Positions 3,009 to 56,922 of a DNA stretch of 64,000 nucleotides are shown piece after piece. The stretch's first letter is position 1. Each line of letters starts with the position of its first letter. Under the pieces are notes generated by a model. That model had not been told where the DNA came from. It was given only the letters and a program-made list of their open reading frames with translations, and did no database searches. Origin of the DNA: Massalongia carnosa (taxonomy: Eukaryota); contig OZ287082.1 in NCBI GenBank assembly GCA_965645245.1, forward strand, positions 558,001-622,000, given 5' to 3'. The translations under genes and the position numbers were made by a program.

Positions 3009-3746
3009 TAGATAACCTAATGACCCTGAGTTTTAGAATAGTATTGACGTAATTTCGTTGCAGCCGCCTCGATGCCATTCAATAGCGCACGTTTCCACGA
3101 TACTCGCTTACGAGATAATCTTGCGCGAGCTTGATCCAGATGATCGAACAGCTTATTGTAGACCTCGAACACCTGATGAATGGTCGGTTGCTTTGATTCA
3201 CAAATCATCTTTGTGAATACGCAGAATAGCTTCGTTAAATCGATAAGATATTCTATCTGTGACCATTCCATGTCGAGCAATCTCAAATACTCGGCTTCAT
3301 GTTTATCATGATATCTATTCAGCGCTTGTCGCAACTTGAGCGCTCGAATTAACATGTGACATGTGGAGTCCCATCGAGTATTTACATCTTGAAAAAGCTT
3401 AAGTACTGTACCGCTGACCGAGTTTCCAGTGCGTCTCTCTTCGTCATTCAATGCTCGTTGAACAGCGTAGAAGTTCTCCTTACGTAAATTGCTCCTGTTA
3501 ATGTAAACAGCTAATGCTCGAACCTAATAGAAATTTAGAACGACTACCACAACGACTACCACGAAATAAATCTTGCCTTAGCTAGCGTAAGGGGAACTCA
3601 AGGTGTCGGGTTTTCGAAATCCCGTCTATCTTGCTTATCATCACAGCTAGTTTTGAAATCGGCATTTTTGGGATTAATGTGAATACACCCAAGTAGCTGT
3701 TTCACGGTAAGTTGAATTACATGCGATAAACAAGGCACTCGCTGTA

Positions 3747-5613
3747 ATCGTCGGCCTGGCTTAGCTGCCTCCATACGAGGTGTACCACCTCTAGTCGGGG
3801 AAAGCGGTCTGCGTAGGCAAGCGATCTGCGTAGTTTCAATCTCAGGATTCACCCATTTTACCACCTATTTTGCAGCTTTTTGCAACACTTTTCGACCGCA
3901 ACCTACGACCGTTAGCTGATATTATTCATACCATAGATAGATATCAACTGCAAATCCTAACTACTTATTGATTAACCGGGATATTCACCTTTATTCAATC
4001 CCGACCGCATCAGTTGCATGCCTCCTATTTCGTCAATCACTCTCTTCCTATTTCATCAACCGCTCCCCACCTCAATCATGAATAGCAGCAGCATCATGAA
4101 TAAGAACCTTATTAAAACCTATGATTCTATTGCAACGCGCGTGCAAAATGCTGAGCAGTTTTATTAGAAAACCCCAAGGAGAGCATCGTTTGCGCTGCTC
4201 GAATCTTCAACCTCGTCGACATCACTCTATACAGTTCAATTGAACGTGAAAAGATGCCGTCGAAAAAAATTGAAGTGTAGAACAAAATACTGGAGGAGCA
4301 TCAGGTCAGAGCCATTCACGAATTCATTCGATCTCTGAATGCGTATGGCATTCAACCTACTCATAAAGTGGCTTTTGCTGCCATTAAGACTCTGAAACGT
4401 GCTCAAGATGCCGAATTCAATGATCCAAGTCCGCGGTGGTTTAGGCAACGGTGGAAAGACAATGGCCTGCACAAGATAAAGACTAAGCCGCTGGCAGTTG
4501 TTCGATATACTGCGGCTCAGGAGTCAGACGTAAAATTATAGTTTGATCGATATCAGCGGGTTCTTGCAGAGTTGGGGATAACTCATTCACAAGATATCTG
4601 GAACTTTGATAAAGCAGGATATCGAGTTGGGTGTATGAAGGGTCATGAAATTCTAGTTCTATCAGATATTAAGGAGTTCTATTCAATCAGTCCAGAAAAT
4701 CGCAAATCTCTTATCATAATCGAAAGCATCAACGCCGCCGGTCATCAACCACCTTCTCCCGTTTTAATTATGCAAGGTCGTAGAATAATGCAGAACTGCT
4801 TCTAAGAGGGGCTGCCCACGGGGACTCTGACTGAAGTATTAAAAAGTGGGTTCATCACCGATAAAATAGCAATTGAATTTTTGAAGCATTTCATTGCGAA
4901 TACATACTCGGGGCCTACAAAGCAGTAGAAATTGATGCTCATGGATAATCATGGGACTTAGTTATTGCACCCCTGAGTTTATAAAGCTTGCCAATGAAAA
5001 TCACATTCGCCCTCTCCCCCTGATACCACATCTGACTCATTGTATGCAACCCCTTGATGTGGGCGTATTTCAACCCTATAAGCATTGGCATGATAAGGTT
5101 ATCCAAGATATCCTTGCAAAGATCAACAATAAGAATAATGAGAATAATTAGGGTGATGAGGGTGATGAGGATGTGCAGTTTAACTTTTATCAAGGGGGCT
5201 ATCGTCAGACTAGGAGTAAATATTAGAACGCACAGTTGATATATATCTACTTATTAATAATATTTGCAAATGAGGTTGAAAATAAAGCAAATGGAGGTTG
5301 CAAATCATGATGAGACGGCGTCGCAAATGAGTTGTAAATAGGTGATAAAACTGGTGAAATTGGAAAAATATAATGCATTCCCGGTTGATAAATGAGCAGT
5401 TAGGATGTGCAGTTGATATCTATCTATGGTATGATTAATAACAGCTAACGGTCGTAGGTTGCGGTCGAGAAGTGTTGCAAAAAGCTGCAAAATAGGTGGT
5501 AAAATGGGTAAATCCTAAGATTGAAACTACGCAGATCGCTTGCCTACGCAGACCGCTTTCCCCGACTAGAGGTGGTACACCTCGTATGGAGGCAGCTAAG
5601 CGAGGCCGACGAT
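3747..5613 (+). mobile_element. pogo-like Tc1-mariner element, family B, long TIRs, degenerate and internally deleted
   Basis: Ends ATCGTCGGCC/GGCCGACGAT with TIRs extending ~230 bp. TA TSD at 3745-3746 and 5614-5615. Transposase fragments IWNFDKAGYRVG and LIPHLTHCMQPLDVGVFQPYK. Confidence 0.92.
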
Positions 5614-41219: not shown

Positions 41220-44200
41220 TCATTCTTAGCCCACGAACGGGAATATCCTGGGCTGACACGGGTATCATAAATACAGAAAACTTGACAAAGGCCTTTGCAA
41301 AACCAGATGTAGGTAGACCCCCACTCAGACCCCGAGCTGTATCTACTGCCCCGGCTATAATCAGAGTAAACAACACCACCAACGACCCCTCGACATCCCA
41401 AGCCGAATCAATGGACGTCTTATAAAGACACGAAATCTCTCTCAATATTGCAGTACAAGATCAGAAATGACAAAGTGAGTATAATGTTACATCTCTTAGC
41501 CGATCCGAATACTCAAGACTATGACATTATCGCAATTCAGGAACTCTGGCGCAATCCATCTATTCCTACCACCTTAAGCTCTCATCAAAGTGGGTTTCAT
41601 TTATTATTTCACCCAAATAGAGACACCAGAGTGTGTTTCTACATAAATGATACTATTGACCCTGATTACTGGGAAGTAGAGTATCCGTCGGCCGACATGT
41701 GCACCCTAAAAATTCGAATGAAAATTAGAAACACATCAAACGTGATCCACATCTATAATGTATATAATCCCTCTCCTATTTTCTATTCTTCTATAGACAG
41801 TCCGTCTACGCTGGCAACATTAAAACGCCAATTAATTGCAGAGATATCACATTTTACTGGGCGACTTTAACCTATATCATCAATTTTGGAATCATTCGAC
41901 GAGGCCTACTCAAAATGCGGAGTCGGAACAATTACTGAACATAATTAAAGAGGCAAATCTATTACTAACACTTCCAAAGGGCACCATTATATGGGAGGCT
42001 AGACAATCGTCTAGCACAATTGATCATGTATTCCTGTCAGAAGAATTAACGGATAGACTAGAACATTGCATGTCAAGACCGGAACTCAATCAGTCGTCCG
42101 ATCATATTCCGATCTCCCCTCGAATTGCGCTGAAAAGTGAGGTTCAAACAATCAGAGAACGCAGGGCCTGGAAACTGACCAACATGAGAAAACTGAAAGA
42201 AGCGGACATGAGGGCGCCCCTCACGACAACCCCCCGATCTCCCGCCGAAATCGATGCTTATACCGTATCAATTCAGTATTTTCTTCAAGAAGTGATAGAA
42301 ACCTCTATACCTTAGGCTAGACCCAGTAAGTACGCCAAACCCTTTTGGAATAATAAATGCAGTTTGATCACGAAAGAAACTCGTAGGCTCAGACGTGTCT
42401 GGTCTAATTTCAGAGTCATCTCTGATTGGATAACATACACAAAATCCAATTACAGAAAACAAAAAATCATTCTAAAGGCTAAAAGACTGTCGTTCCGCAA
42501 GGAAAGAGAAAAAGCCACCGAATCGCCTACTGGTCTCATGCGACTAGCCAAATGGGCGAAAGACAAAAGTGACCAGACAAGAGAAATTCCCAAAATGCCC
42601 AATCTCGTTCGAGACGACCAAGTAGCAGAGACGTTCGAGGAGAAATCGGACATGTTAAAACAGAAAATCTTTCCACCCGCCCCTCCGGCCGACCTCAGCG
42701 ACATAGAGGGTTTATTTTACCCCAGCCCGCCACAATGTCCAATAATCATAACCAAACTGTAGGTGATGGAAGCCATACGCCGACTCAAGCCCGATACGGC
42801 CCCGGGTCCGGACGGAATAGCCAACAGAATTGTAAAGTCATGCTCGGAAAAGCTAGTCGAATTACTCACCCCACTGTTTCAAGCATGTGTAGATCAAGCA
42901 TATCATCCTCGTGCATTCAAAACCGCCAACACAATTACTCTCAAGAAAAGATGCAAGGATGACTATTCGGCCCCGAACGCCTACCGACCCATATCACTCC
43001 TAAACACGCTAGGAAAAGTGACGGAATCCATCATGTCACAAAAAATAACCCATCTAGCGGAAACCCACCGACTCCTGCCTGACACCCAGATGGGCGCCAC
43101 ACGAGAAAGATCAACCGAATCTGCAATAGAATTGTTGACTGAACAAATTCTTACAGTGTGGGGCCAAGGCACAGCACATCTTTGAGCATGGACGTAGCAG
43201 AAGCCTATGACACAGTGACACATCGAAGACTGATTCACAATCTTCGCAAAAGGAAAATCCCAAAATTTTTACTGACTGGGTGAACAGTTTTCTGAATAAA
43301 AGAAGTACTACCCTGGCGATTCACAGCCGAGTCACGGGCATATTCGATGTATAAACCGGAATCCTACAAGTCTTCCCTATTTCTCCTATTCTTTATCTGT
43401 TCTACTATGCAGACCTACTAGACATATGTGAAAGACCAGGCAGCAACACGGGTCCTCTAGGCTTCGTAGATGACATTAATGTGCTAGCATACGGAAAAAG
43501 CATCGAAGAAAATTGCAAGACGCCAGAGGTAATTTACAAAAAATGTGAAAAATGGGCAAGTCGACATGGTTCAGTCTTCGCTCCGAAGAAATACGAATTG
43601 ATACATCTGTCAAGAAATCCGAAGAAATTCAACATGTTCACTGTTATTCAAATAGGAAATAAATTCATAAAACCAAAGACAGATATCAGAATTCTAGACT
43701 TCAGATCGATTCAAATTTGAAATGGGGTGCTCACACAAGGAAAATCCAGGGAAAAATGACAAAACAATCCAGGACATTGACAAAAATATCCACCTCTACA
43801 TGGAGCGCAACTCTTCTAAAGGCACGCCAGGGTTACACTACCGTAGTCCAGCCGGCCATGACGTACGGGTCTACCATTTGGCACATGCAAAAAGAAATTC
43901 AAAAATCAAAGGTCATCTCAAACAAACTGGCTGTCATACAAAACAAATGGCTAAGAAACATAGCCGGAGCCTTCAAAGCAACGACTATAGCTGTACTAGA
44001 AGCAGAGACATTTATAGCCTCAATTGACATACATTTAGATCAACTACAGGCCCAGACCAGACAACGCCTATGTCGAAATGGCCAAAAGAGTTTCATCACA
44101 AATGCATGCAACAAAATAGCCAATAAACTTCGAGGTCGGGCAGGACGCAAGAGGGCCCCAGTCATCACTCCAGGAACGCTGAAATACTCCTGGGCCAAGA

Positions 44201-44998
44201 GAATCATATCGGAGGCACACAACCCTCCAACACCTACACCAAATCCACCATGGGCCGAATCCCCCCCGAATCTCGCCCGAGAAATAAGGGAGGCACGCGC
44301 CGCTCATAACAAAATAACTGCTCAAATCAAAAAACGACACACAGTTGCATGGCAGGACTCGTGGAGATCATATCAGGAACGCACACCGGTTCCCACCCCG
44401 GCACAATCAGGTTTACTCTCTAAAAAACGCATCAAATTGCACGAAACTCTAGCCAAAGCGGAGAGCGCGCTAGAAATTCAGATACGCTCAGAAAAGAGAG
44501 GCCTAGCCGCCTTCCTCTATAGACTTCGAGTCCCAGACGTCTCGTCCCCGAACTGCTCATGCGGTTGGCACAAACAGACTGCAAAACATGATCACATGTT
44601 TTGCAAACTCAACGACAACAGAAAAACTCTGCTAAATACGATGGGCACAAACAACTATCGATTAATCACTGAGTCATCTAAAGCAATGAAATTAGTCACA
44701 AAGTGGCTAATGAAGACAGGTTTGTTGTCACAATTTTCGCTGACAGCATAGCATCTATACTGCTAACAGTAGGCATCCTTTGTTTCATTTTTCATACTTG
44801 TCTTAGGTCAAAAGTTTTTTCATGGAGCACACGGCTGGGACCCGTAGGGCCCTCGGCCGGACACAGGAATGCATGGTTTTTCTTCCTCAAAAGGTTTTCC
44901 ATGTACTATAAAACTAGATAGACTCGCCCGCATGGGCCGGCCTTCGGCCGGTACCACATCGGAATAAGAATAATCATCATCATCATCATCATCATCAT
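41220..44998 (+). mobile_element. Tad1-like LINE C (end of ORF1 plus ORF2 APE-RT), frameshifted
   Basis: IAIQEL, LGDFN, SSDH, APGPDGI, YRPISLLNTLGK, FVDD, CSCG..H finger, (ATC)n tail at 44973-44998. 5' boundary approximate. Confidence 0.9.
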
Positions 44999-45006
44999 GA
45001 ATCGCT

Positions 45007-48000
45007 TTAAGACTCTAACGATAAACTCTCCATCTGCCACCCATTGAGAAGCTCAAGCGAAGACTCTGTATCAGGATGTTGAGGACCCAATTTGTGTCAT
45101 CGTAGCTGAAAACATTCCTTTAGCAGTGAGAGAGCCTCATCATTGCGGCCTTGAAACTTCCACGTGAATGCAAGGTTGCTCATGCTAGTCAGCGTGTCTG
45201 GATGCTCCGCCCCTAGCACCCTCTTTCTCGTCGTCATCACTTGCACCTGCAACTCTTCGGCCTCCGTCCATCGTCCTTGATTCCTGTACGTCAACGCAAG
45301 ATTGTTCATGCTAGTCTGCGTGGAAGGATGCTCCGCCCCTAGCACCCTCGCACTCGTCTCCATCACTTGCACCTTCAGCTCTCCGGCCTCCGTCAATCGT
45401 CCTTGATTCCAATATGTTAACGCAAGATTGGCCATGCTAGTCAGCATGTCTGGATGCTCCGCCCCTAGCACCCTCTTTCTCGTCGTCATCACTTGCACCT
45501 GCAACTCTTCGGCCTCCGTCCATCGTCCTTGATTCCTGTACGTCAACGCAAGATTGTTCATGCTAGTCTGCGTGGAAGGATGCTCCGCCCCTAGCACCCT
45601 CGCACTCATCTCCATCACTTGCACCTCCAGCTTTTCGGCCTCCGTCCATCGTCCTTGATTCCTGTACGTCGACGCAAGATTGGCCATGCTAGTCAGCGTG
45701 GAAGGATGCTCCGCCCCTAGCACCCTCGCACTCATCTCCATCACTTGCACCTCCAGCTTTTCGGCCTCCGTCCATCGTCCTTGATTCCTGTACGTCGACG
45801 CAAGATTGGCCATGCTAGTCAGCGTGGAAGGATGCTCCGCCCCTAGCACCCTCGCACTCGTCTCCATCACTTGCACCCGCAGCTCTTCGGCCTCCGTCCA
45901 TCGTCCTTGATTCGAATACGTTAACGCAAGATTGGCCATGATAGTTAGCGTGTCTGGATGCTCCGCCCCTAGCACCCTCGCACTCGTCTCCATCACTTGC
46001 ACCTGCAGCTCTTCGGCCTCCGTCCATTGTCCTTGATTCCTGTACGTCAACGTAAGATTGGCCATGCTACTCAGCGTGGAAGGATGCTCCGCCCCTAGCA
46101 CCCTCGCACTCATCTCCATCACTTGCACCTGCAGCTCTTCGGCCTCCGTCCATCGTCCTTGATTCGAATACGTTAACGCAAGATTGGCCATGCAAGTCAG
46201 CGTGTCTGGATGCTCCGCCCCTAGCACCCTCGCACTCGTCTCCATCACTTGCACCTGCAGCTCTTCGGCCTCCGTCCATCGTCCTTGATTCCAATGCGTC
46301 AACGCAAGATTGGCCATGCTAGTCAGCGTGGAAGGATGCTCCGCCCCTAGCACCCTCGCACTCGTCTCCATCACTTGCACCTGCAGCTCTTCGGCCTTCG
46401 TCCATCGTCCTTGTCCCGTGTATGCCGATGCTAGCATAGCCATACTATTCAATGTCTCTTCATCCTCTGGACCAAGCACTTTTTGCCTGGTTCTTGTTGC
46501 TTTTAGGGCCATTGTCGCTGCTTCAGCGTAACTCCCTTTCGCCCACGCATACCATGCAGCGTGATATAGTATCAAGGCCCAATCTTGTAATGAGCTTTCG
46601 ACAGCTGGCTCCTGCGCTACTGCCGACTTTGCGTGAGGAAAAAGCGCTTGACACTTTGTCTAATTCTCGTAATTTCCCGTCGGAAATACTGTACTGAGAT
46701 TCTTGATGTACTGCTGCTTCCATCTTTCGAGCTGATTGGATGCTTCTAGCCACTTTCTGATCGCTAGCTGCACTAGCCCGTGCATCTCAAAGGTGGTTTC
46801 ATCCATGCTGATGGTGATGAACGAGAAGTTTCTCAAGACAAGTATGTCGTCTTCAAACTCGTCGACGCTGGAATCGGATACGGTATCCTTATCGCTATCG
46901 TCTTCGTGGTCATCATCTTCGTCATTTCCAGCATTTTCACCCGTATTTTCATTTCCTGCCTCGTTTTGTGTCTTGAGTAAAGCCTCAGGAATTCCCTGTC
47001 GATCGAAAAAGCTCATAAGCGACAGCAGATTAGCTGCCGAAGGCTTGATCTGATGAATATGATCAAACGATATTTGCCAGGTTATAATGATTGAATTTTT
47101 AGCCTCCAGGTCCCTGCGAAGATGTCCCGCTTCGTGATTCAACAGACTGGTCTTTCTTTTATCGTTTTTATAGAACTCTTTTATGTACTGTCGAACAGAA
47201 TATCTTGGTACTCTTTGTCGAATGTATGCGGCCGCTTGAATGATGGCAAGCGGCATGAATTCGAGTGCTGCTGCTTGCTCAGCAGTATCATCTCTGTCCA
47301 TCTGTTCTCCCAGCTTCTTTTCAAGGAGCGCTAGCGCATGTGTATCGTCCATCGGCTCAACCGGTATTATGTCGCTTTCTTCTGCTAGCCGCAATGCCAC
47401 GCTTTTAGTCCGGGAGGTGATGAGAATCGAGCCGTTTCGACTCTGAGGTAGATATGCTAACAGTGATTGCGTGAGCCCGCTTCTAATGCCGCCATCCTGC
47501 GCCTTCTGGCCTGTAGCATGAGTTTCGAAAAGCACAGTAGCTTCGTCGGCATTATCGAGGACCAGAGCCCACTTTCCGTTCTTCTCGTCGCGTAACCACT
47601 TGTCAACTAGCCGGAATATGTCCGCCTTTGGGTCCTCCCTGCCAGGAATCTTGACTTGCTCTGCAACATCCCGATAACCTTGCTCGATACGGGCTGCATT
47701 ACTAGCGTGTATCCAGAACACCCACGTCGTCGGCAACTGCTCTCTGATTCGATAGCAGTACTCGATAGCAAGCTGCGACTTTCTTTGCGAAAGTAAGCTA
47801 TTAGAACTAGCCTGAGGCCTTTTGGCTTACCCAACGCCGCCTAGGCCGACAAGCGCTACCCTTGATGCTGGCGCCGAGCACTTTTCGTGGATCTAATCAA
47901 GTAGCGTTCCGCGATCGACGAAATCAGGGTCGCGGCGGAAAGGAACAGCAGATGATGAGCTTGGTGGGGTATCGGGTCTTTCTACAAACGCAAAATGCTA

Positions 48001-48191
48001 TCAGCCTCGGCTCACAGGACGCTATATCATTGCGAATGGCGACTTGCCTGGACATTGAACAATATTGTTTGTCTGAGAGCCTAATCAGGATTTAGCATAA
48101 GATCAATATCGATGTGAACAGGACGCAAACCAATCACTTTCGCATAGCCTGAGACGTCACCGATCACAGCGCCTTGGTTGCCAGAAATCAT
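45007..48191 (-). pseudogene. Fungal NLR: short N-terminal peptide, NB-ARC, TPR array; three in-frame stops
   Basis: Exons 48191-48131, 48080-48048, 47981-47831 and 47782-45007. ERPDTPP..VPFRRDPDFVDR linker, Walker A GLGGVGKS, Walker B LVLDNAD, ILITSR, MPLAI, MHGLV. Stops at 47893, 46660 and 45097. Confidence 0.9.
45130..46480 (-). repeat. About 11 high-identity 126-bp (42-aa) TPR repeats
   Basis: Unit VLGAEHPxTLTSMANLALTYxNQGRWTEAEELQVQVMETSAR. Confidence 0.95.
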
Positions 48192-48597
48192 GCCAAAATC
48201 CTTCGCGCCTGTAGAGACTGCTGGCGTGTTACCGGCCATTGCTGCGTCGGAAGATTATAGACATTAGAGCTCAGGGATGTATTGAATAAGACTGAAACCC
48301 TATCTTTACCGTCCTCGGGACCGCACCTAGGCTCGGTCAGAAACTCGACGCCCAAGACTTTCCAAAAGCACGGTTCATCTATATAAATACAGGCACGGAC
48401 TCGCCGATGGAAGGCCCCCGCCATCATGCGGGCACGGGATAGATGACTGGCTGATAGAGCCAAGGCTATGCACGTGCTCAAGCGCCTGGTCTATCCATGC
48501 AGGCGGTACTGCGGTGTACAATTATCTCGCATCAGTTATAGTGCTAAGTTTGAAGTATAAGGGTACGACTCCTCTGTGTTGCGATGACAACGCCAGC

Positions 48598-49424
48598 ATG
48601 GCCGAACCGTACGGATTAGGCGACCCCCTCTTTGATTCTCCAGACGCGAATATAGAGTACGCACCAGATGTCTCGTCCGAGTTGCTTGGTACTGACCATA
48701 CAGCATTGTCTTCGTCCACGGGCTCGGCGGTGATAGAGTGAAAACCTGGACATGGGAGGGTCGCGATAGATCGCTGTTGTGGCCGCTAGATCTCTTACCT
48801 CAAGCCTGCCCAACAACTCGCATCCTTTCTTTTGGGTACAACACGGACTTTGCTCACTTCTTTCCGTTTGTTGGGCCGAAATTCATCCCGGAGCATTTAG
48901 CTATTGATGATCACGCGACTGCAATGTTCCAAAGCCTAATCGGTCTTCGCGAGAAAACGAAAACTGTAGGAATTGGCGCACCCCTTGTCTTTCCACCGGA
49001 AATACGCTAATAGGATGTCTATGTCCAGGCTGAATGTCCGATTATTTTCGTCTCGCACAGTCTATAGGGTCTCGTTTGCGCCAATGCGTTGTCAAGGCAC
49101 AATGGTACCGACATGGCTAGCACTAACCTCGTGGAGAGAACGATTGGAGTCGTCTTCCTTGGAACGCCCTTTGAAGGATCGTCAAAAGCACAATGGGGAA
49201 GCAGAGCTCTACAGATATTGGGCTGGATAAGCACCACGCATAAGCAGGATATAAAGGATCTTGAAGAGCGTTCGGCAAAGCTCATCAGCGTTAACGAGGC
49301 CTTTCAGAAATTCCTGAAAGCACGGGATCGTTCAGAATCAAGAGAGTTTGTGGAAGTAGCTTGCTTCTTTGAACAGTATGCTATGTACAAGGAGTGCACG
49401 GACGAGAAATTCAAGAAAAGGTGA
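48598..49424 (+). pseudogene. SesB-like alpha/beta hydrolase (NLR effector type), divergent from the NLR; stop in the nucleophile elbow, 3' end apparently lost
   Basis: Introns 48657-48703 and 48966-49028 give DIVFVHGLGG..TW..WPLDLLP..RILSFGYN..PIIFVSHSL*GLVC..GVVFLGTPFEGS..CFFE. TAG at 49065-49067. Confidence 0.85.
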
Positions 49425-49708
49425 ACAGCTTTGTGATGAATTTCGGAGAAGATGATAACTGATATCTGCGTAATCGATACAGATGAAAAGTGATGGTCAG
49501 GATCTTTCAACGATCATCATGGCCTCAGTCTTCTAAATGATTTCCATTGCGAAATAGACTTCAGCTTGCTTTCTCACTCAACAACTTCACGAAATCTCAA
49601 GCAATGGATCTTCTACCACTCCTCTAAAATCTTACATAAGGCAATCACATAGCCATACGAAAATACTGAACCACATACCACATACCTACACCACCTACAA
49701 ACACAAAC

Positions 49709-50135
49709 ATGTCCTCCTTCTACTCCCTCCGCGCCGCGCTCTAGGCACCACGAGCCCGCGCCTTTGCGCCGCGCTAGCTCGCCGCTAACTACCACAGTTC
49801 ATCGCTGCTGCGGATGCCCTACAAGGATGACCAAGACCGAAAGTCGCTGAAGCCCAAGTCGACCGAGGGTAGCAAGTTCGGTACGGATCAAGGCGCCGCC
49901 GAGACGGACGCAGCGTTTGAACCGTCCAATACACGCCCTGAGGAGGAGAAAGAAGCTGCGGGCAATAAGAACGAAGGTAACCCGCTGGCTGTGAGCGGTG
50001 CTAACCTGAAGAAGTCCGTTCCGCTGGGTGATAAGGGCGGTCCGACTATGAAGGGCACGACGAAGAATGAGGGGGAATGAGAAGGCTAGTGGTGGTGGTA
50101 GTCCGGAGAAGAAGGGAAAGCCGCCTGCGATCTAG
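49709..50135 (+). pseudogene. Small conserved-looking fungal hypothetical protein with mitochondrial-targeting-like N-terminus, disrupted
   Basis: R/S/A/L-rich start, then PYKDDQDRKSLKPKSTEGSK..AF..NPLAVSGAN; stops in the 5' part and a frameshift near the end. Recognised from memory only. Confidence 0.55.
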
Positions 50136-50348
50136 AGATGCTGCCGAAAGGTGATGGGAGAAATAATTCATTGAGGAAAACGGAAGCTTTGCATTAGTCT
50201 GCATTTTCGGTAACCGAAGTTATGGAGTAACTCAAGTTTATCGCGAGGTGAAATAAAAGTCTCGAACCCTGCCCCTGATCACGCCCCTGAACGCCGTTGC
50301 TCATCTGTGGCCGTGTGTATGCTCTTCGATACGCTAGTCCTACCAAGT

Positions 50349-51035
50349 TCAGTCGTATAGCATGTCTGAATCCTTATCTTCCCCCTTCTCTTGTACGGGC
50401 TTGCCCTTTTGGTCCTATATCTTCTTTATCCTGTCCGACGTATCCTCGCATCTGGGATTATACTTTGTTAAATGCGTTCAGCATATCGGGCAGGTTCCTT
50501 TCAGCTGCAGCCAAGGTCCCACGCACTGAACTTGTGATTTTGATGGCACTGCAGCTCGACCATAAGGGGTATAGATCGTTCAAGAACTTCTCGGTGCATA
50601 TGGGACACGCGTTATCTGGTTTTGGGCTCTTCTTCGGTATCCGCTCCAGCACATTTAAGAATTCCTGCGAAACTCCCTTCACATCCTTCGGCGGGTTGAA
50701 GATGTCGCTGTTCAGAGATTCTATGAGAGATATAAGGAAGTCCTTGTTGGCAGTCTCAGGTGCATCTCGAGCGAGGGTTTTAAACTGGACATGTACGAGG
50801 CGAAAGAGATATTTTGTACGGTAAGCGGACTGTTGCGCTGAGCTGACTCATTTGAAGAGAAGGAATCATTGCTGATTTGATGGCGCAGGGAGTTGAAGCT
50901 GAATATGACGATCTGCCTTCGGCAACGCGGCGCCGGTTCGATCTTGATGCCGTGCTCGACTGAGTGATGCTGTTAGCTTCTGCTTCAAGGTGGACATGGA
51001 GAGTGGGATGACCAAACTTAGTGTTGGGTCGTCAT
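50349..51035 (-). pseudogene. RING-H2 finger protein (resembles the yeast YBR062C-like family), frameshifted
   Basis: GVSQEFLNVLERIPKK..CPICTEKFLND.YPL, then in other frames VELQCHQNHKF and CVGPWLQLKGTCPIC. Short first exon and intron. Confidence 0.75.
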
Positions 51036-51445
51036 GCTAGAATTGTGTCTTGAAAGGCGATGAGATGTTGGCATTAATACTTCCTGAAGGAGCTATAATT
51101 CTGGGGAGAATGAGGTCGAGAGAATGGAACTTTCAAAGGTGAGCTTTGAGGAAGCAACCCTACTGACGTGAGCTTTTCAGGCACAAGCTGCTGACGCGGG
51201 ACCTTGGGTTATACAGGCTTAGTCCCAATAGTTCTGGCTCAGCCCTGCAGGCTGTCATGACTGCTATAAGCAGTCACCTTCTTAGTGATTTCAGCATTAT
51301 GCCGTCAACTGTTCATGTAACATACAGATCCAACGAAAACGCCAAATCCCTTCAATCACCCCGGTTTTTGCTCAAACCGCGCTGTAGCAGCAAATGCAAC
51401 GACCGGTCCCTTCTCCATGCGTGCTAAAGATGTAATTGTCTATGA

Positions 51446-51700
51446 TCATCTGTGTCCCATGTCAAACTGATGCTGAGGGATCCGACCTGTAAGTCTGAGG
51501 CTACAGCTATCGATCTGCTTAAACCAACGATCTGTGAGCGCATCTTTCATGGAAATGCGTTTCACCGGATCTGGATGTATTATTCGCAAGGCTAAGCTTT
51601 TTAGCACTGGATTTTTGAGATTGACAAACACCGGATCACAGTTGGGGAGCTCGAAGCCCGATGATGAGTCCGTCGGGATACGTGACCGTGAACTTCTCAC
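51446..51700 (-). pseudogene. Ser/Thr protein kinase C-terminal fragment (subdomain XI)
   Basis: LKSLALRIIHPDPVKRISMKDALTDRWF; no catalytic motifs seen upstream. Confidence 0.6.
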
Positions 51701-52591: not shown

Positions 52592-53623
52592 TCAGGAGGC
52601 TGTGGGAGGGTGTTGAAAACGGCGTGAGGTGGCTAAGATGTGGGATTGATGCGTTTGGATATAAAGCTTGTAGGAGTCTGACTTCCACCGGCCTAGTAAT
52701 TGAATGTCGTTCTCGCTAAGACCGGCTTCCTTGGCCGACGTCGCTGCACCTCTTCGGAAAGAGTGACCTGAATAATTACCTGATATGCCTAATCTCTTAA
52801 GGCCTGATCGCATCGCGGTAGTCAAATATTCGCGTGTGAAAGCCTTTTGTTTATAGAATAGAGGGGAGGATGCAGGTAGTGGAAACCGGGTGATCAAATT
52901 ACGAAGGGATTTTACCGCGCAGGCCTCGTCCCCTGATGCGGCTATCGTTAGCGTAATGCCTCGACGAAAGGGGTCGGTTTTGGACGCCGGCAAGGAGAGG
53001 AACAGCTTATCTGCTTCTAAGTGGACGGATTTCCTAGTTAAATGCCATGATTCGAAGCTTGGGTCTGTTAGGTCTCTGATAGTGTACGTAAATTTGCCTG
53101 CGCGAAGAAATCCTGCGAATGCCAGACAGTATGCTGCGTGTAGAGTGGCCTGCGCGTTGTCGGCTAAGTCCAATCGTTTCACTAATCGAAGGAGTATGTT
53201 TTTCGTAATGGGCATTCGCTCTTTCTTGTCGGCTTCGCCATTCTTTCGCTTTATGCCTGCAATGATTCTATTTAGTACGGGATGGTGAAACGTTTCTAGA
53301 TCCTCAAAGCCCGTGTCGATTTGGCTAGACCGAACTCCGGCTAGATAGGCCTTAATGGTTTTGGGCTGTATTTTGTGTTCTCCTAGCATCGCTATCCAAG
53401 ATGACAAGGTCTGTATGGTTGCCGGAAATGGAGTCGCGTTCATTGATATTCTGCAGTGTGTTACATAGCTTCTTCTCCCTGTGTCATACAGATTGCGGGT
53501 TTTGACTGCCAAGCCCCACCACAGGTATCTAGCTGCTGGTCGGGATAGAGGTATTTCGCTATACCAGCTTTCGGGAGGTTCGCGTGCTAGGATTTGAGTA
53601 GAGGTTCCTGTAAATTGGGCCAT
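52592..53623 (-). CDS. Tyrosine recombinase of a DIRS/Ngaro-like element
   Basis: FAGFLRAG (R), ASKTD (K), SGHSFRRGAAT (HxxR), LLGRWKSDSYKLYI (W, Y); 343 aa open. Confidence 0.92.
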   Translation of the reverse strand: MAQFTGTSTQILAREPPESWYSEIPLSRPAARYLWWGLAVKTRNLYDTGRRSYVTHCRISMNATPFPATIQTLSSWIAMLGEHKIQPKTIKAYLAGVRSSQIDTGFEDLETFHHPVLNRIIAGIKRKNGEADKKERMPITKNILLRLVKRLDLADNAQATLHAAYCLAFAGFLRAGKFTYTIRDLTDPSFESWHLTRKSVHLEADKLFLSLPASKTDPFRRGITLTIAASGDEACAVKSLRNLITRFPLPASSPLFYKQKAFTREYLTTAMRSGLKRLGISGNYSGHSFRRGAATSAKEAGLSENDIQLLGRWKSDSYKLYIQTHQSHILATSRRFQHPPTAS

Positions 53624-54268
53624 TTGTTAGCGATTTTCTCCAATTTGCTCCGTGATAGGAGGTCAGCGAGCTCATTTGACTTTGTTGGGATCCAACGTAT
53701 TTCAATCCGAATATCATGAATAGCGGTCAGCATTGCGATTGCCCGAAGGGGCCGCATAGCGTTTCCACGAATAGATGATTTCCTTATTCCTGACGTGACA
53801 GCAAAGTTGTCACAGTGGAAAATCACATGGCTCCCTGCACAAAGGGGGAGCCATTTACGCAAAGCGTGTAATATCGCTGTCATTTCTTTGACATTGATGT
53901 GAGTTGGCCTAAGCCGAGACGTGAAACGTTCAGAAAGTGCATGCTCAGCGGGCATGGTAAAACTGGTATGATCCTCCACTAGGATGTAGGCCCCAATGCC
54001 GTACCCTGATGCGTCCGTCCAAAGACGAAATGTCTCGCGAGGACGGTCTAACATGCGAATGCCATTCCATTTAGGTAAAAAAAGATGCCACCACTGCAGG
54101 TCGGCTTTGATATTCTCGTTAATATGAATATGACGCCCACGAGACATGGCTTTTGCGTTAAAAAGACGTCGGAGGAAAGCTCTCCCTGGCACTACCACTT
54201 TAGGTGCGAATGACAAAAATCCCAACAAGGAGTCTAATTCCTCCCTATTAAAGCTTGATTTATTGATC
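53587..54268 (-). CDS. RT thumb and RNase H of a DIRS-like element (5' partial)
   Basis: LLGFLSF..VVPGRAFLRRL, DLQWW, TDASG, HINVKEM, HCDN, WIPTKSNELADLLSR. Confidence 0.88.
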
Positions 54269-56922
54269 TAAGCTCTTGGTGATTGGAGAATGATTTACGT
54301 TTTAGATAGACACTTGGAATTGAGGTGATGATTGCTTGCATTGAAAGGATTTTGCACCCATTCTCTCAGTTACTAGAATGTTGGGATTCGGTTAATAGAT
54401 TACCGTATCCGAGCTACATATCGCTTACTGCTTGACCACTAAACTGGCTGACACATCCCCTTGATGAAGATTTTCTCCTTCAGTGGAATCTTCATCATTT
54501 CCTTTCTTATATCCTAGGCCTAATAGCCTGATGAATTGCTTTTGACGTTGGGGGGGTAATGACTTTGTTAGTCCATCAGCTAGAATGTTATTTGTTGAAA
54601 CCCATTCTATACCGATTTTCCCCCTAGATATTTCCTGGCGGAGCCAATGCTTGTGAAATCCACATGCCTAAGCTTGGTAATAAGGCGGTTAGTGGTTAGG
54701 GCTCGAATGGTTTGACGGTTATCGCATTGAATACTAGTTGGATGATCGAGGTGGAAATTTATTGATTGAAAAAAGCGAGTCCACCATATCAGTTCTTTCC
54801 CTGCGGCTGATATAGCTATCAATTCGGCCTCGGTTGAGCTAGTTGTGACTGTGCGCTGCTTATAAGCCTTCCAATCGATCATTCCATTGAATAGTTTGAA
54901 TGCATAGCCTTAAGAGCTATATCTAGTGCTTGAATCATCTGCGAAGGATGCATCGCTACTAGCCAAGAATATCTCTCGTGAATAAGTAGCCTGTGTGTTA
55001 AATACAATTGCTAGATGCTTAGTATGGGCTAGATATTTGAGGGTACGATTGACGCATTCCATATGGTGTTTGGATGGGTTGGTAAGAAATTCCGATAATT
55101 TGGAAGCTGCTTGGGCCACATCGAGCCTAGTGATGACTGCGGCAAAATTCAATGATCCTACCCGCTGTTGATAGGAGTGAATTTCTTGAGCTGTTGCTAT
55201 GGAATTATTTTTGGTTAATTCTTCTAGTTGTAGTGGTGATTGTGTTGAACGCTTGGTGAGGTCCAAGTTGATGTTGAACTTGGCTATTAGCTTGTCAATG
55301 TATAAATCTTGGCATAGCCATAGCTGACGAATATTCCTATCCCTGATGAAGTGAATTCCTAGAAACCTTTCCAATTGGCCCAAGTATCGCATCTCGTACT
55401 TCTGAAATAGTAGAGCTTGAAACTGATCCACTTGATTGGTGTAGCGGCGATCATATAATATGACGATATCATCCACGAAGAAGAATAGCAAGATATGGGT
55501 ATCTTGACTAATTAAAAGGCAGTCCACCCCCGGGACGGGTTCAAGATTCATCTCGATTCGGACTTTTGATAGATTTTGATACCATAGGGCCGGTGATTGC
55601 TCGAGACCGTATAATGCTCGCAATAGGAGTAGTAGAATATTGACTTTTTCTGATCCAGGCTACCCCTCGGGCAATTTACAATAGGTAGGTTCATCAATAG
55701 GACTATTTGCAAATGCATTGACAGCGTCGTATTGGCGTGTTTCAAGGTCAAATGCGGCTAGTATAGCCATTAGCGCTCTAAAAATCCGTGCGGCCAAGGT
55801 AGCTGTAAAGGTATCTTGCTCGGTACGTTGAAGATCACCCCTAGCACATAGTCTTGATTTATATTTGACTAAATACCCCTTTTCATCGAGTTTGTACTTG
55901 AACACCCACATGGTTGGAATATGTGTTTTCCCTGCTATTGTTGCTGCATTGATGTTGACCTCGGTCCAGGTGTTCTTTGAAACAAGCGCCTGAATTTCTA
56001 TCTGCATGGCTAATTTGAAGCCCTCTGCATGCGGATACTTTAGCATTTGACGATAGTTCTCAGGTTCAATAGGTAAGCTATCTCTATGAAAGCGAGTGCT
56101 TTGAGTCGGGGTATAGTCCTTTTTAGGCTCTTGATTGGAAATGTAGTAGGAACTTGCCATGATATTGGCCGAGAATGTAGCGTGATATGAATTCAACTCG
56201 CCATTCTTGGCTTGTGCTAAGGCGGTTGAATAGGCTTCATAGCGTCTATTGCGATTGCGACTTCTTCCCATCCCCTCAGGTAAGATATTATCCGTATCGA
56301 GACTTGAATTGATATCCCTTGATGCTTTTCTAGACTTGTTACTCTATGCGGTGATTGATTCTGATGGATTTGAACCATGAATTGATGGGTTTGGGCTTGA
56401 TGAGCTGGTAATGGAGGGGCTCGGTGTAAATAGGTAAGTGTCGTCTGATAAAATTTCGGCAGCATTTCCGTATCAAGAATTTTTGTCCAGAATTATTTCC
56501 TCCGTATTTTCTTCCATACCTTGTATGTTTTCCCTCATGCCGATTCCACTTTCCTCCTCTTCATCATCCGATCCTATTTCGGTGATAAGAGTGATGGGAT
56601 CCAGATCATGAAGCTCATAGGTAATTTCAAGCATAGGTTCGTTGACAGCTTGTAGTAGGTCAATATCGTGTGCATCATAGTAGGTGTTCTCATTAAACAT
56701 CACATCTCTCGTACGAATTACTTTTCTTTGACTTGGTATCCATACTCGAAAGATATTTCTGGCTTCATACCCTACTAGATGACCGATATGTGCTCGTTCT
56801 TGAAGTTTTTGCTTCTTTGGTATCTACTTGTTTAGTGTGTCCGCTTTGCATCCATAGTGGTGGAGAAGGCTGAGATCGGGCGGGTTTCCTATGACTAGCT
56901 CATAATGTATTTTCCATTGGTG
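54269..56922 (-). mobile_element. Second Copia family: 3' LTR, RNase H, RT and integrase C-terminus; 5' half missing
   Basis: LTR about 54269-54453 with adjacent PPT. KSRLCARGDLQ, FFVDD, SDASFAD, SSTEAE, KLRHVD. Multiple stops. Confidence 0.88.

Follow-up and report, generated by a model that had tools for sequence, protein, structure and literature searches.

The question raised by this locus is how an NLR that starts without an effector domain could act on an enzyme encoded next to it. In the window, by which we mean the whole analyzed stretch of 64,000 nucleotides from Massalongia carnosa (contig OZ287082.1, positions 558,001 to 622,000; contig C16 of a genome of 52 Mb in 25 contigs), an NB-ARC/TPR NLR gene on the minus strand and a SesB-like alpha/beta hydrolase gene on the plus strand stand in divergent orientation. 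The initial annotation took the N-terminal peptide of the NLR for a candidate amyloid signaling motif, perhaps of a new family, and found no counterpart at the end of the hydrolase. The pair in the window is a pseudogene, a dead copy of a large family. On the sequence evidence from that family, a motif about 35 residues long stands at the start of an NLR without an effector domain, a homologous motif ends the hydrolase next to it, beyond a variable linker and outside the predicted fold, and the two motifs co-vary within loci. That the NLR would act on the lipase by amyloid templating through this shared motif is, in our view, the likely explanation, the amyloid behavior of the motif being predicted.

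A motif shared by receptors and effectors

The window sequences have many relatives in the same genome, the NLR exon 1 matching 34 places and the hydrolase exon about 30 (88-100% identity). The effector-side motif is encoded by the penultimate hydrolase exon, which is kept in 27 of the 30 modeled own-genome copies, in frame in 25, and lost in three, namely that of the window, its twin on contig C20 and one other. The absence of a hydrolase motif recorded in the initial annotation hence holds for the window copy, from which it is deleted, and does not extend to the sister copies; where the hydrolase is intact, its C-terminus does bear a matching motif. The receptor core in the window exon (ISGNQGAVIG) is to be compared with the effector core in a sister exon (IDNNRGVIMG), and in both a Gly-x-x-x-Phe block precedes the core and a (V/I)-x-G-S block follows it. 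The full motif, V-x-x-G-x-[VK]-x-F ... I-x-x-N-x-G-V-V-x-G ... I-[TI]-G-S, spans about 35-40 residues around the core N-x-G-V-V-x-G, is rich in G, V, T, N, I, A and S with 1% Pro, and shows three near-invariant Gly across fungal classes.

The motif is found at hydrolase ends across several classes of Pezizomycotina, and it also opens NLRs of both the NB-ARC/TPR and the NACHT/ankyrin kind. Named carriers are Lindgomyces, Dendryphion, Polyplosphaeria, Zopfia, Phyllosticta, Aspergillus nanangensis, Penicillium, Xylaria, Bombardia, Fusarium oxysporum, Pseudogymnoascus and Orbilia. Motif tails were recognized by eye in 38 of 120 hydrolase matches; many of the remainder are single-exon fragments that end at the intron before the motif, and one has a tail like PP, the amyloid motif with the consensus FxGx(x)NxGLQLxGxNxGxL (PMC3321046). 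A PP-type motif opens 30 of 120 NLR matches, and the new motif opens four of them, all named NB-ARC/TPR NLRs. A profile hidden Markov model (HMM) built from effector tails only (one tail lacked an anchor and was dropped, three were mis-anchored) placed all eight same-type NLR N-termini within the top nine of 125 sequences, a PP carrier being sixth. The combined profile, run against 1.84 billion proteins, gave 60 matches at E <=0.001, some from its own training set, which by pattern comprise 14 receptor-side and 44 effector-side sequences and 2 unrelated repeat proteins. The longer effector-side matches that were read are all hydrolases, many others being short exon fragments with the parent protein unassigned. 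The hydrolases, as identified by their sequences, are the effector-side carriers of the motif and the only ones found here. The motif profile had no match among PDB sequences at E 10, the hydrolase tail had no usable match in the ESM Atlas, and one NLR N-terminus, used in a word-based search, found no sequence but its own. As far as sequence comparison can tell, the conserved receptor-effector motif is real.

Adjacency and co-variation of the partners

The pair also adjoins in other fungi. In A. nanangensis the NACHT/winged-helix/ankyrin NLR KAF9893432.1 carries the receptor-side motif, and its accession is consecutive to that of the motif-bearing hydrolase KAF9893431.1, on contigs of the same length, which argues that the motif moved between NLR classes and kept its neighbor. 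Fifteen metagenome loci (L053-L067) were examined for a partner motif. At L053 the same first two exons are found head-to-head and the contig stops before the NB-ARC, while four distinct loci (L056, L058/L059, L060 and L061-L063) have a motif-bearing partner head-to-head, the hydrolase of L061-L063 being a fragment without tail. L059 contains three motif-bearing genes. No partner motif was found at L054, L055, L057, L066 and L067, and L064 and L065 have PP-like ends and an ankyrin partner. In these last two (L064:1160-2518 on the minus and 3240-4180 on the plus strand; L065) a distant hydrolase with a PP-like tail stands head-to-head with an ankyrin protein that opens with a PP-like motif, and a nucleotide-binding domain was not found in frame in this ankyrin protein. 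With motif borders set by hand, 1 of 120 permutations equalled or beat the true pairing of receptor and effector motifs; with borders set by rule, 4 of 720 did so for six loci and 1 of 24 for four lineages. These tests comprise few loci, four of them with non-NLR partners.

These non-NLR partners are a second kind of motif-first gene. At four divergent loci the motif exon has the same intron position, and what comes next, in place of a nucleotide-binding domain, is a helical stretch of about 150 residues and then a tail without Pfam match; the third motif-bearing gene of L059 is of this kind. The domain is predicted to be a helical bundle (mean pLDDT, or predicted local distance difference test score, 70), and the ESM Atlas puts it near HeLo-like proteins of PF17111 (0.92, 164 shared features). 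A fold search gave Rx-CC (Z 10.2, root-mean-square deviation 2.8, 107 aligned residues) and MLKL (Z 9.7, 2.9, 115 aligned), neither of which reached the Z of about 13 that helical bundles require or ranked as high as unrelated bundles, and we treat the predicted similarity to them as a suggestive lead. By eye, the partner tails of L059, L060 and L063 have a short conserved stretch in common.

The hydrolase effector

The SesB-like hydrolases match Abhydrolase_6 and DUF676, the structure model resembles lipases and esterases, and both S118 in the nucleophile elbow and the catalytic H256 are at least 90% conserved. We take them to have an alpha/beta hydrolase fold with conserved catalytic residues and a predicted lipid-hydrolyzing activity. 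From residue 291 on, pLDDT block means are <60, which places the motif tail outside the predicted fold, and within the tail the conservation of the motif core is 0.64 vs 0.32-0.38 for the linker. A complex prediction with three hydrolase motif exons and three NLR exon-1 peptides scored 0.01, which is outside the calibration of the tool and is evidence neither way.

The window locus

The gene models of the window pair are given in Table 1. The NLR matches NB-ARC (weakly), DUF7779 and TPR_10 (12 times), and its three introns measure 50 (GT-AG), 66 (GC-AG) and 48 bases (GT-AG). The position of the first recurs in the partner genes of five metagenome loci. The nearest named relative of this NLR comes from Lobaria immixta (78% over the region that was searched). 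The initial annotation was right that this NLR has no folded N-terminal effector domain, as exon 1 matches no Pfam family and 47 residues stand before the linker, and that a SesB-like hydrolase lies on the opposite strand. It was also right that both genes are pseudogenes, the NLR having three premature stops, of which those in exon 4 are at 46660-46662 and 45097-45099 (natural stop 45007-45009), and the hydrolase one stop and a lost 3' end. It had placed the hydrolase truncation near 49390-49424, and similarity to the sister copies ends at 49392, with the catalytic His region and exons 4-5, including the effector-side motif, deleted. The motif is indeed in the N-terminal peptide that it pointed to, and starts further upstream and is longer than drawn. 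Only the window copy has the Met at 48191, where the other modeled copies have Thr and one has Pro, and the start codon is therefore at 48239. With the start 48 bases earlier, the peptide has 47 residues and the distance between start codons, given as 406 bp, becomes 358 bases.

Table 1. Features of the window locus (positions in the window) and of related loci
Feature	Coordinates	Strand	Remarks
NLR exon 1	48131..48239	-	most of the receptor-side motif (~48131-48218)
NLR intron 1	48081..48130	-	phase 1; placed after the second ..I-G of the motif
NLR exon 2	48048..48080	-	end of the motif
NLR exon 3	47831..47981	-	proline-rich linker up to the P-loop; premature stop 47893-47895 (codon 77)
NLR exon 4	45007..47782	-	NB-ARC, DUF7779, array of 42-residue TPR repeats
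Divergent intergenic region	48240..48597	.	299-360 bases in uninterrupted sister copies
Hydrolase exon 1	48598..48656	+	
Hydrolase exon 2	48704..48965	+	oxyanion-hole region
Hydrolase exon 3, truncated	49029..49392	+	stop 49065-49067 in the nucleophile elbow
Unrelated DNA in place of the hydrolase 3' end	49393..51481	.	99% identical to the twin locus on contig C20
Non-NLR motif-first genes	L059:3433-4060 and 117-693; L060:892-2937; L063:1-1390; L056:430-890	-	
Sixfold segment	C1:111-188, C7:1903-1986, C12:1848-1923, C13:39-118, C16:1783-1861, C17:1734-1807 kb		

The twin locus on contig C20 (C20:698-716 kb; L033, L094, L096) has the same hydrolase truncation and a 1.3 kb intergenic insertion, and its NLR is intact with 1484 residues. 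In the window the pair is flanked by decayed LINE-like, tyrosine-recombinase and copia-like retroelements, seen by eye in translations (41370-44760, plus strand; 52592-54267 and 54400-56343, minus strand).

Expansion of the family

According to the gene models, 22 of the 34 NLR copies reach their natural end, with 4 to 30 TPR repeats and several variable repeat positions, and two more are cut near it. Of the 30 modeled hydrolase copies only 4 are open, and in one of these the last donor site is altered. Intact neighboring pairs are those of L020 and L031, on contig C19 at 503 kb and 1013 kb, and four NLRs have no adjacent hydrolase. Twelve copies have two small hydrolase deletions in common, of 2 bases and 1 base, and form six inverted pairs 54-66 kb apart, and since these twelve represent one loss event, the asymmetry between sensors and effectors is smaller in events than in copies. 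An assembly error behind the common deletions was considered and rejected, both being present in contigs from public runs, among which may be runs of the source sample.

The six pairs belong to a segment of more than 70 kb that is present in six copies of about 99% identity where probed (L016-L019, L026-L030, L032, L036, L037, L043-L051, L068-L087). All six loci match a 4-kb probe from the interior with 99% identity, and their flanks are common up to 23.7 kb. The inverted arms, up to 13 kb long (13 kb with 97-98% identity on contig C17), consist of a copia element and the NLR-hydrolase pair, and they surround nonribosomal peptide synthetase (NRPS), TPR-NLR, Mutator-like element (MULE) and retroelement pieces. 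In five of the six copies the nearest contig end is no more than about 200 kb away. A Starship captain (DUF3435, PF11917) was not listed near the six loci among 60 scored candidates, in an examination that did not reach the element ends. Elsewhere, DUF3435 (captain-like) genes at C12:204 kb and C8:2217 kb point towards two other pair copies, at distances of 56 kb and 83 kb. Further inverted duplicates are two distant hydrolases of equal score 53 kb apart (C2:2738091, minus; C2:2790865, plus) and a DUF3435 pair 105 kb apart (C17:50 kb, plus; C17:155 kb, minus).

Proposed mechanism and alternatives

We put forward a hypothetical mechanism that follows from analogy with the HET-S/NWD2, PP and sigma systems. 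Binding of a ligand to the TPR array would cause the NLR to oligomerize, the clustered NLR N-termini would fold into a cross-beta seed, and this seed would convert the tails of the hydrolases. The resulting clustering would then switch on the lipid-hydrolyzing effector, probably for regulated cell death. That SesB-like lipases act as death effectors has only indirect published support (PMC9815663). The proposal of an amyloid signaling pair in the initial annotation is supported, in that intact hydrolases have the tail motif, the pair adjoins elsewhere and none of the known motifs examined matches.

A number of points weigh against this mechanism. Fibril or prion formation by the motif is predicted by analogy, and the gene models and their splicing are likewise predicted, with splice sites that are canonical in most copies and consistent with annotated homologues. 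The score of the window peptide against an intact sister tail was reached in 92 of 5000 shuffles, which is modestly above chance; this pair alone being weak, the case rests on the family. The effector-tail HMM gives low scores to the same-type NLR N-termini (8.6-12.9 bits), the L060 pair alone is not significant (274 of 2000), and receptor and effector partners in this genome show low similarity. In Lindgomyces and Dendryphion, the NLRs and hydrolases with the motif that were checked do not have neighboring accessions, and an NLR domain was not found in the partners at the four divergent loci (at L056 by eye, on a short contig). Among the own-genome copies, moreover, the nonsynonymous-to-synonymous ratio of the motif exons (0.74, 0.80) is higher than that of the cores (0.21-0.35), as calculated from small counts with pseudogenes included.

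The weak pairwise score and the relaxed-looking substitution ratio, together with the fact that most local hydrolases are pseudogenes, would suit a likeness that is a relic or a compositional coincidence of functionless G/N/V-rich ends. We regard this as highly improbable in view of the conservation across classes with its near-invariant Gly, the apparent move between two NLR classes and the co-variation within loci. The low partner similarity, and the presence of the motif at the start of helical-bundle proteins in which no NLR domain was found, would also be compatible with a non-amyloid interaction tag that holds or recruits the hydrolase by beta-strand addition or as a small beta-helix, much as in toxin-antitoxin or adaptor systems. 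This we consider quite unlikely, as amyloid motifs that have been tested show the same pattern in the termini used, adjacency, co-variation and composition (PMC9815663, PMC3321046).

It is also conceivable, while in our judgment unlikely, that the amyloid mechanism holds and the motif is a divergent branch of PP/RHIM that cross-seeds with PP, in which case it would be a subfamily only. The motif has the N-x-G-x-x-x-G-x-x-x-G spacing of PP, hhalign aligns the two over 16 columns (probability 38.7, E 3e-4), PP instances score up to 14.3 bits with the new HMM, and a PP NLR ranks sixth with the effector-tail HMM. PP, too, is paired with SesB-like lipases (PMC5485727, PMC3321046), and PP is the motif of most sister NLRs that have the same linker. 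However, the central Gln of the G-x-Q-x-G core, which is common to RHIM, PP and BASS3 (bioRxiv 10.1101/2020.01.06.895854), is present in 2 of 32 new-motif sequences vs 27 of 30 for PP, the PP core (NxGxQxGxN) occurs in 0/32 and 0/53 sequences, the PP HMM gives the new set at most 7.5 bits vs 39.9-65.5 for its own training set, and extra conserved blocks flank the core of the new motif on both sides. No Pfam amyloid-motif family, including PF17106 and PF17046 (the PP profile, misnamed Ses_B; PMC12261475), was found in 23 hydrolases or in the motif exon, and neither of these two was among the matches listed for four motif NLRs where the PP controls P0129 and P0236 matched PF17046; Pfam also misses some PP-like ends (P0127, P0120). 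The initial annotation saw no match to known motifs, and none of the described motifs comparable here fits, yet the likeness to PP is weak but real, so that the choice between a new family and a divergent PP branch is a judgment.

Amyloid templating from NLR to lipase can be set in a broader frame, which we offer tentatively and think rather doubtful as a whole, of a hydrolase-dedicated, undescribed amyloid family across Pezizomycotina with non-NLR signal sources and a fan-in network. Non-NLR proteins may signal too, the motif standing before a HeLo-like four-helix bundle in the reverse of the usual effector layout. In the network, more than 20 NLRs with 4 to 30 variable TPR repeats would seed in trans a handful of intact lipases, the NLRs having spread partly by the sixfold-duplicated segment with its inverted arms and surplus lipase copies having been lost.

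A lipase-only family would provide clean two-gene systems, one in an Aspergillus, to probe a seeded enzyme, and a PP-like core without the central Gln would probe the requirements of RHIM-type cores and the origin of cross-seeding barriers. Many sensors and few effectors in one genome would make testable the published speculation that many NLRs control one unlinked effector.

Comparison with known amyloid signaling systems

Surveys recognize four to five amyloid signaling families in fungi (PMC9815663, PMC12261475). The sigma A and B blocks are defined (PMC3321046), as are the position rules of HRAM (PMC4518210) and the PUASM pattern FxGxGxQxxGxGxF (PMC9815663). Sigma A (GxGxQFN) was found in 0/32 sequences and a GGTQN-like form of sigma B (GGTQNINT) in 1/32, with no threefold repeat; the PUASM pattern occurs in 0/32 and 0/53, and the HET-s end pattern, in our own shorthand, in 0/32. 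HRAM calls for Arg or Lys at position 15, Asn, Gln or His at 3, hydrophobic residues at 5, 8, 10, 16 and 18 and Gly at 19; by an ungapped count, positions 16, 18 and 19 fit, position 15 is Gly in 32/32, and positions 3 and 8 do not fit. PF11558 and PF17108 gave no match, and the hydrolases carry a single motif, not two repeats on a HeLo or HeLo-like effector.

Most carriers given for the orphan motif NLR34 in the 2022 survey (PMC9815663) are NACHT proteins of Fusarium or proteins of Tuber, without a neighbor motif, which argues against identity with the present motif in a comparison by description. Six of our accessions were not found in the searchable parts of its supplements (8 of 11), and motif words had no match in 23 of its 127 cluster alignments, where a PP control word had none either. 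A description of the motif was not found in the open-access literature, in a comparison made without the published profile HMMs. With the profiles of the orphan survey motifs (NLR34, NLR19, NLR39, NLR40 and PF01048_015) and of BASS1, 2 and 4-10 lying outside the comparison, we lean towards the family being undescribed.

The system resembles HET-S/NWD2 with HRAM (PF11558, PF17108) in its divergent pair and in having hydrophobic residues at HRAM positions 16, 18 and often 10 before the terminal Gly, and differs in having Gly and not Arg/Lys at position 15, mostly Gly/Asp at position 3 and a single copy on the hydrolase. As in PUASM, the motif is bound to one class of effector enzyme (PMC9815663), here a hydrolase and not PNP_UDP. 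The sigma system sesA/sesB/het-eN of Nectria haematococca (PF17106) likewise has a SesB-like effector and an NLR 5' motif split by an intron, and its motifs are more alike within the cluster than between orthologues (PMC3321046), the three motif-bearing genes of L059 being the parallel here; unlike sigma, there are no GxGxQFN repeats, and the helical partner bears its motif at the N-terminus and not at the C-terminus. PP (PNT1/HELLP/SBP, Chaetomium globosum) also has an effector-less NLR beside a SesB-like lipase with a common terminal motif, with the N-x-G-x-x-x-G spacing, and close NB-ARC/TPR relatives carry it. In contrast to PP, the new motif has no central Gln, about 35-40 residues vs 17-18 and extra conserved blocks, and no HeLo-like effector with a C-terminal copy was found among the profile matches. 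We read the motif, from its sequence features, as a separate family related to PP and distinct from PP, sigma, HRAM and PUASM, probably a distant cousin of PP/RHIM in which a hydrophobic residue replaces the central Gln.

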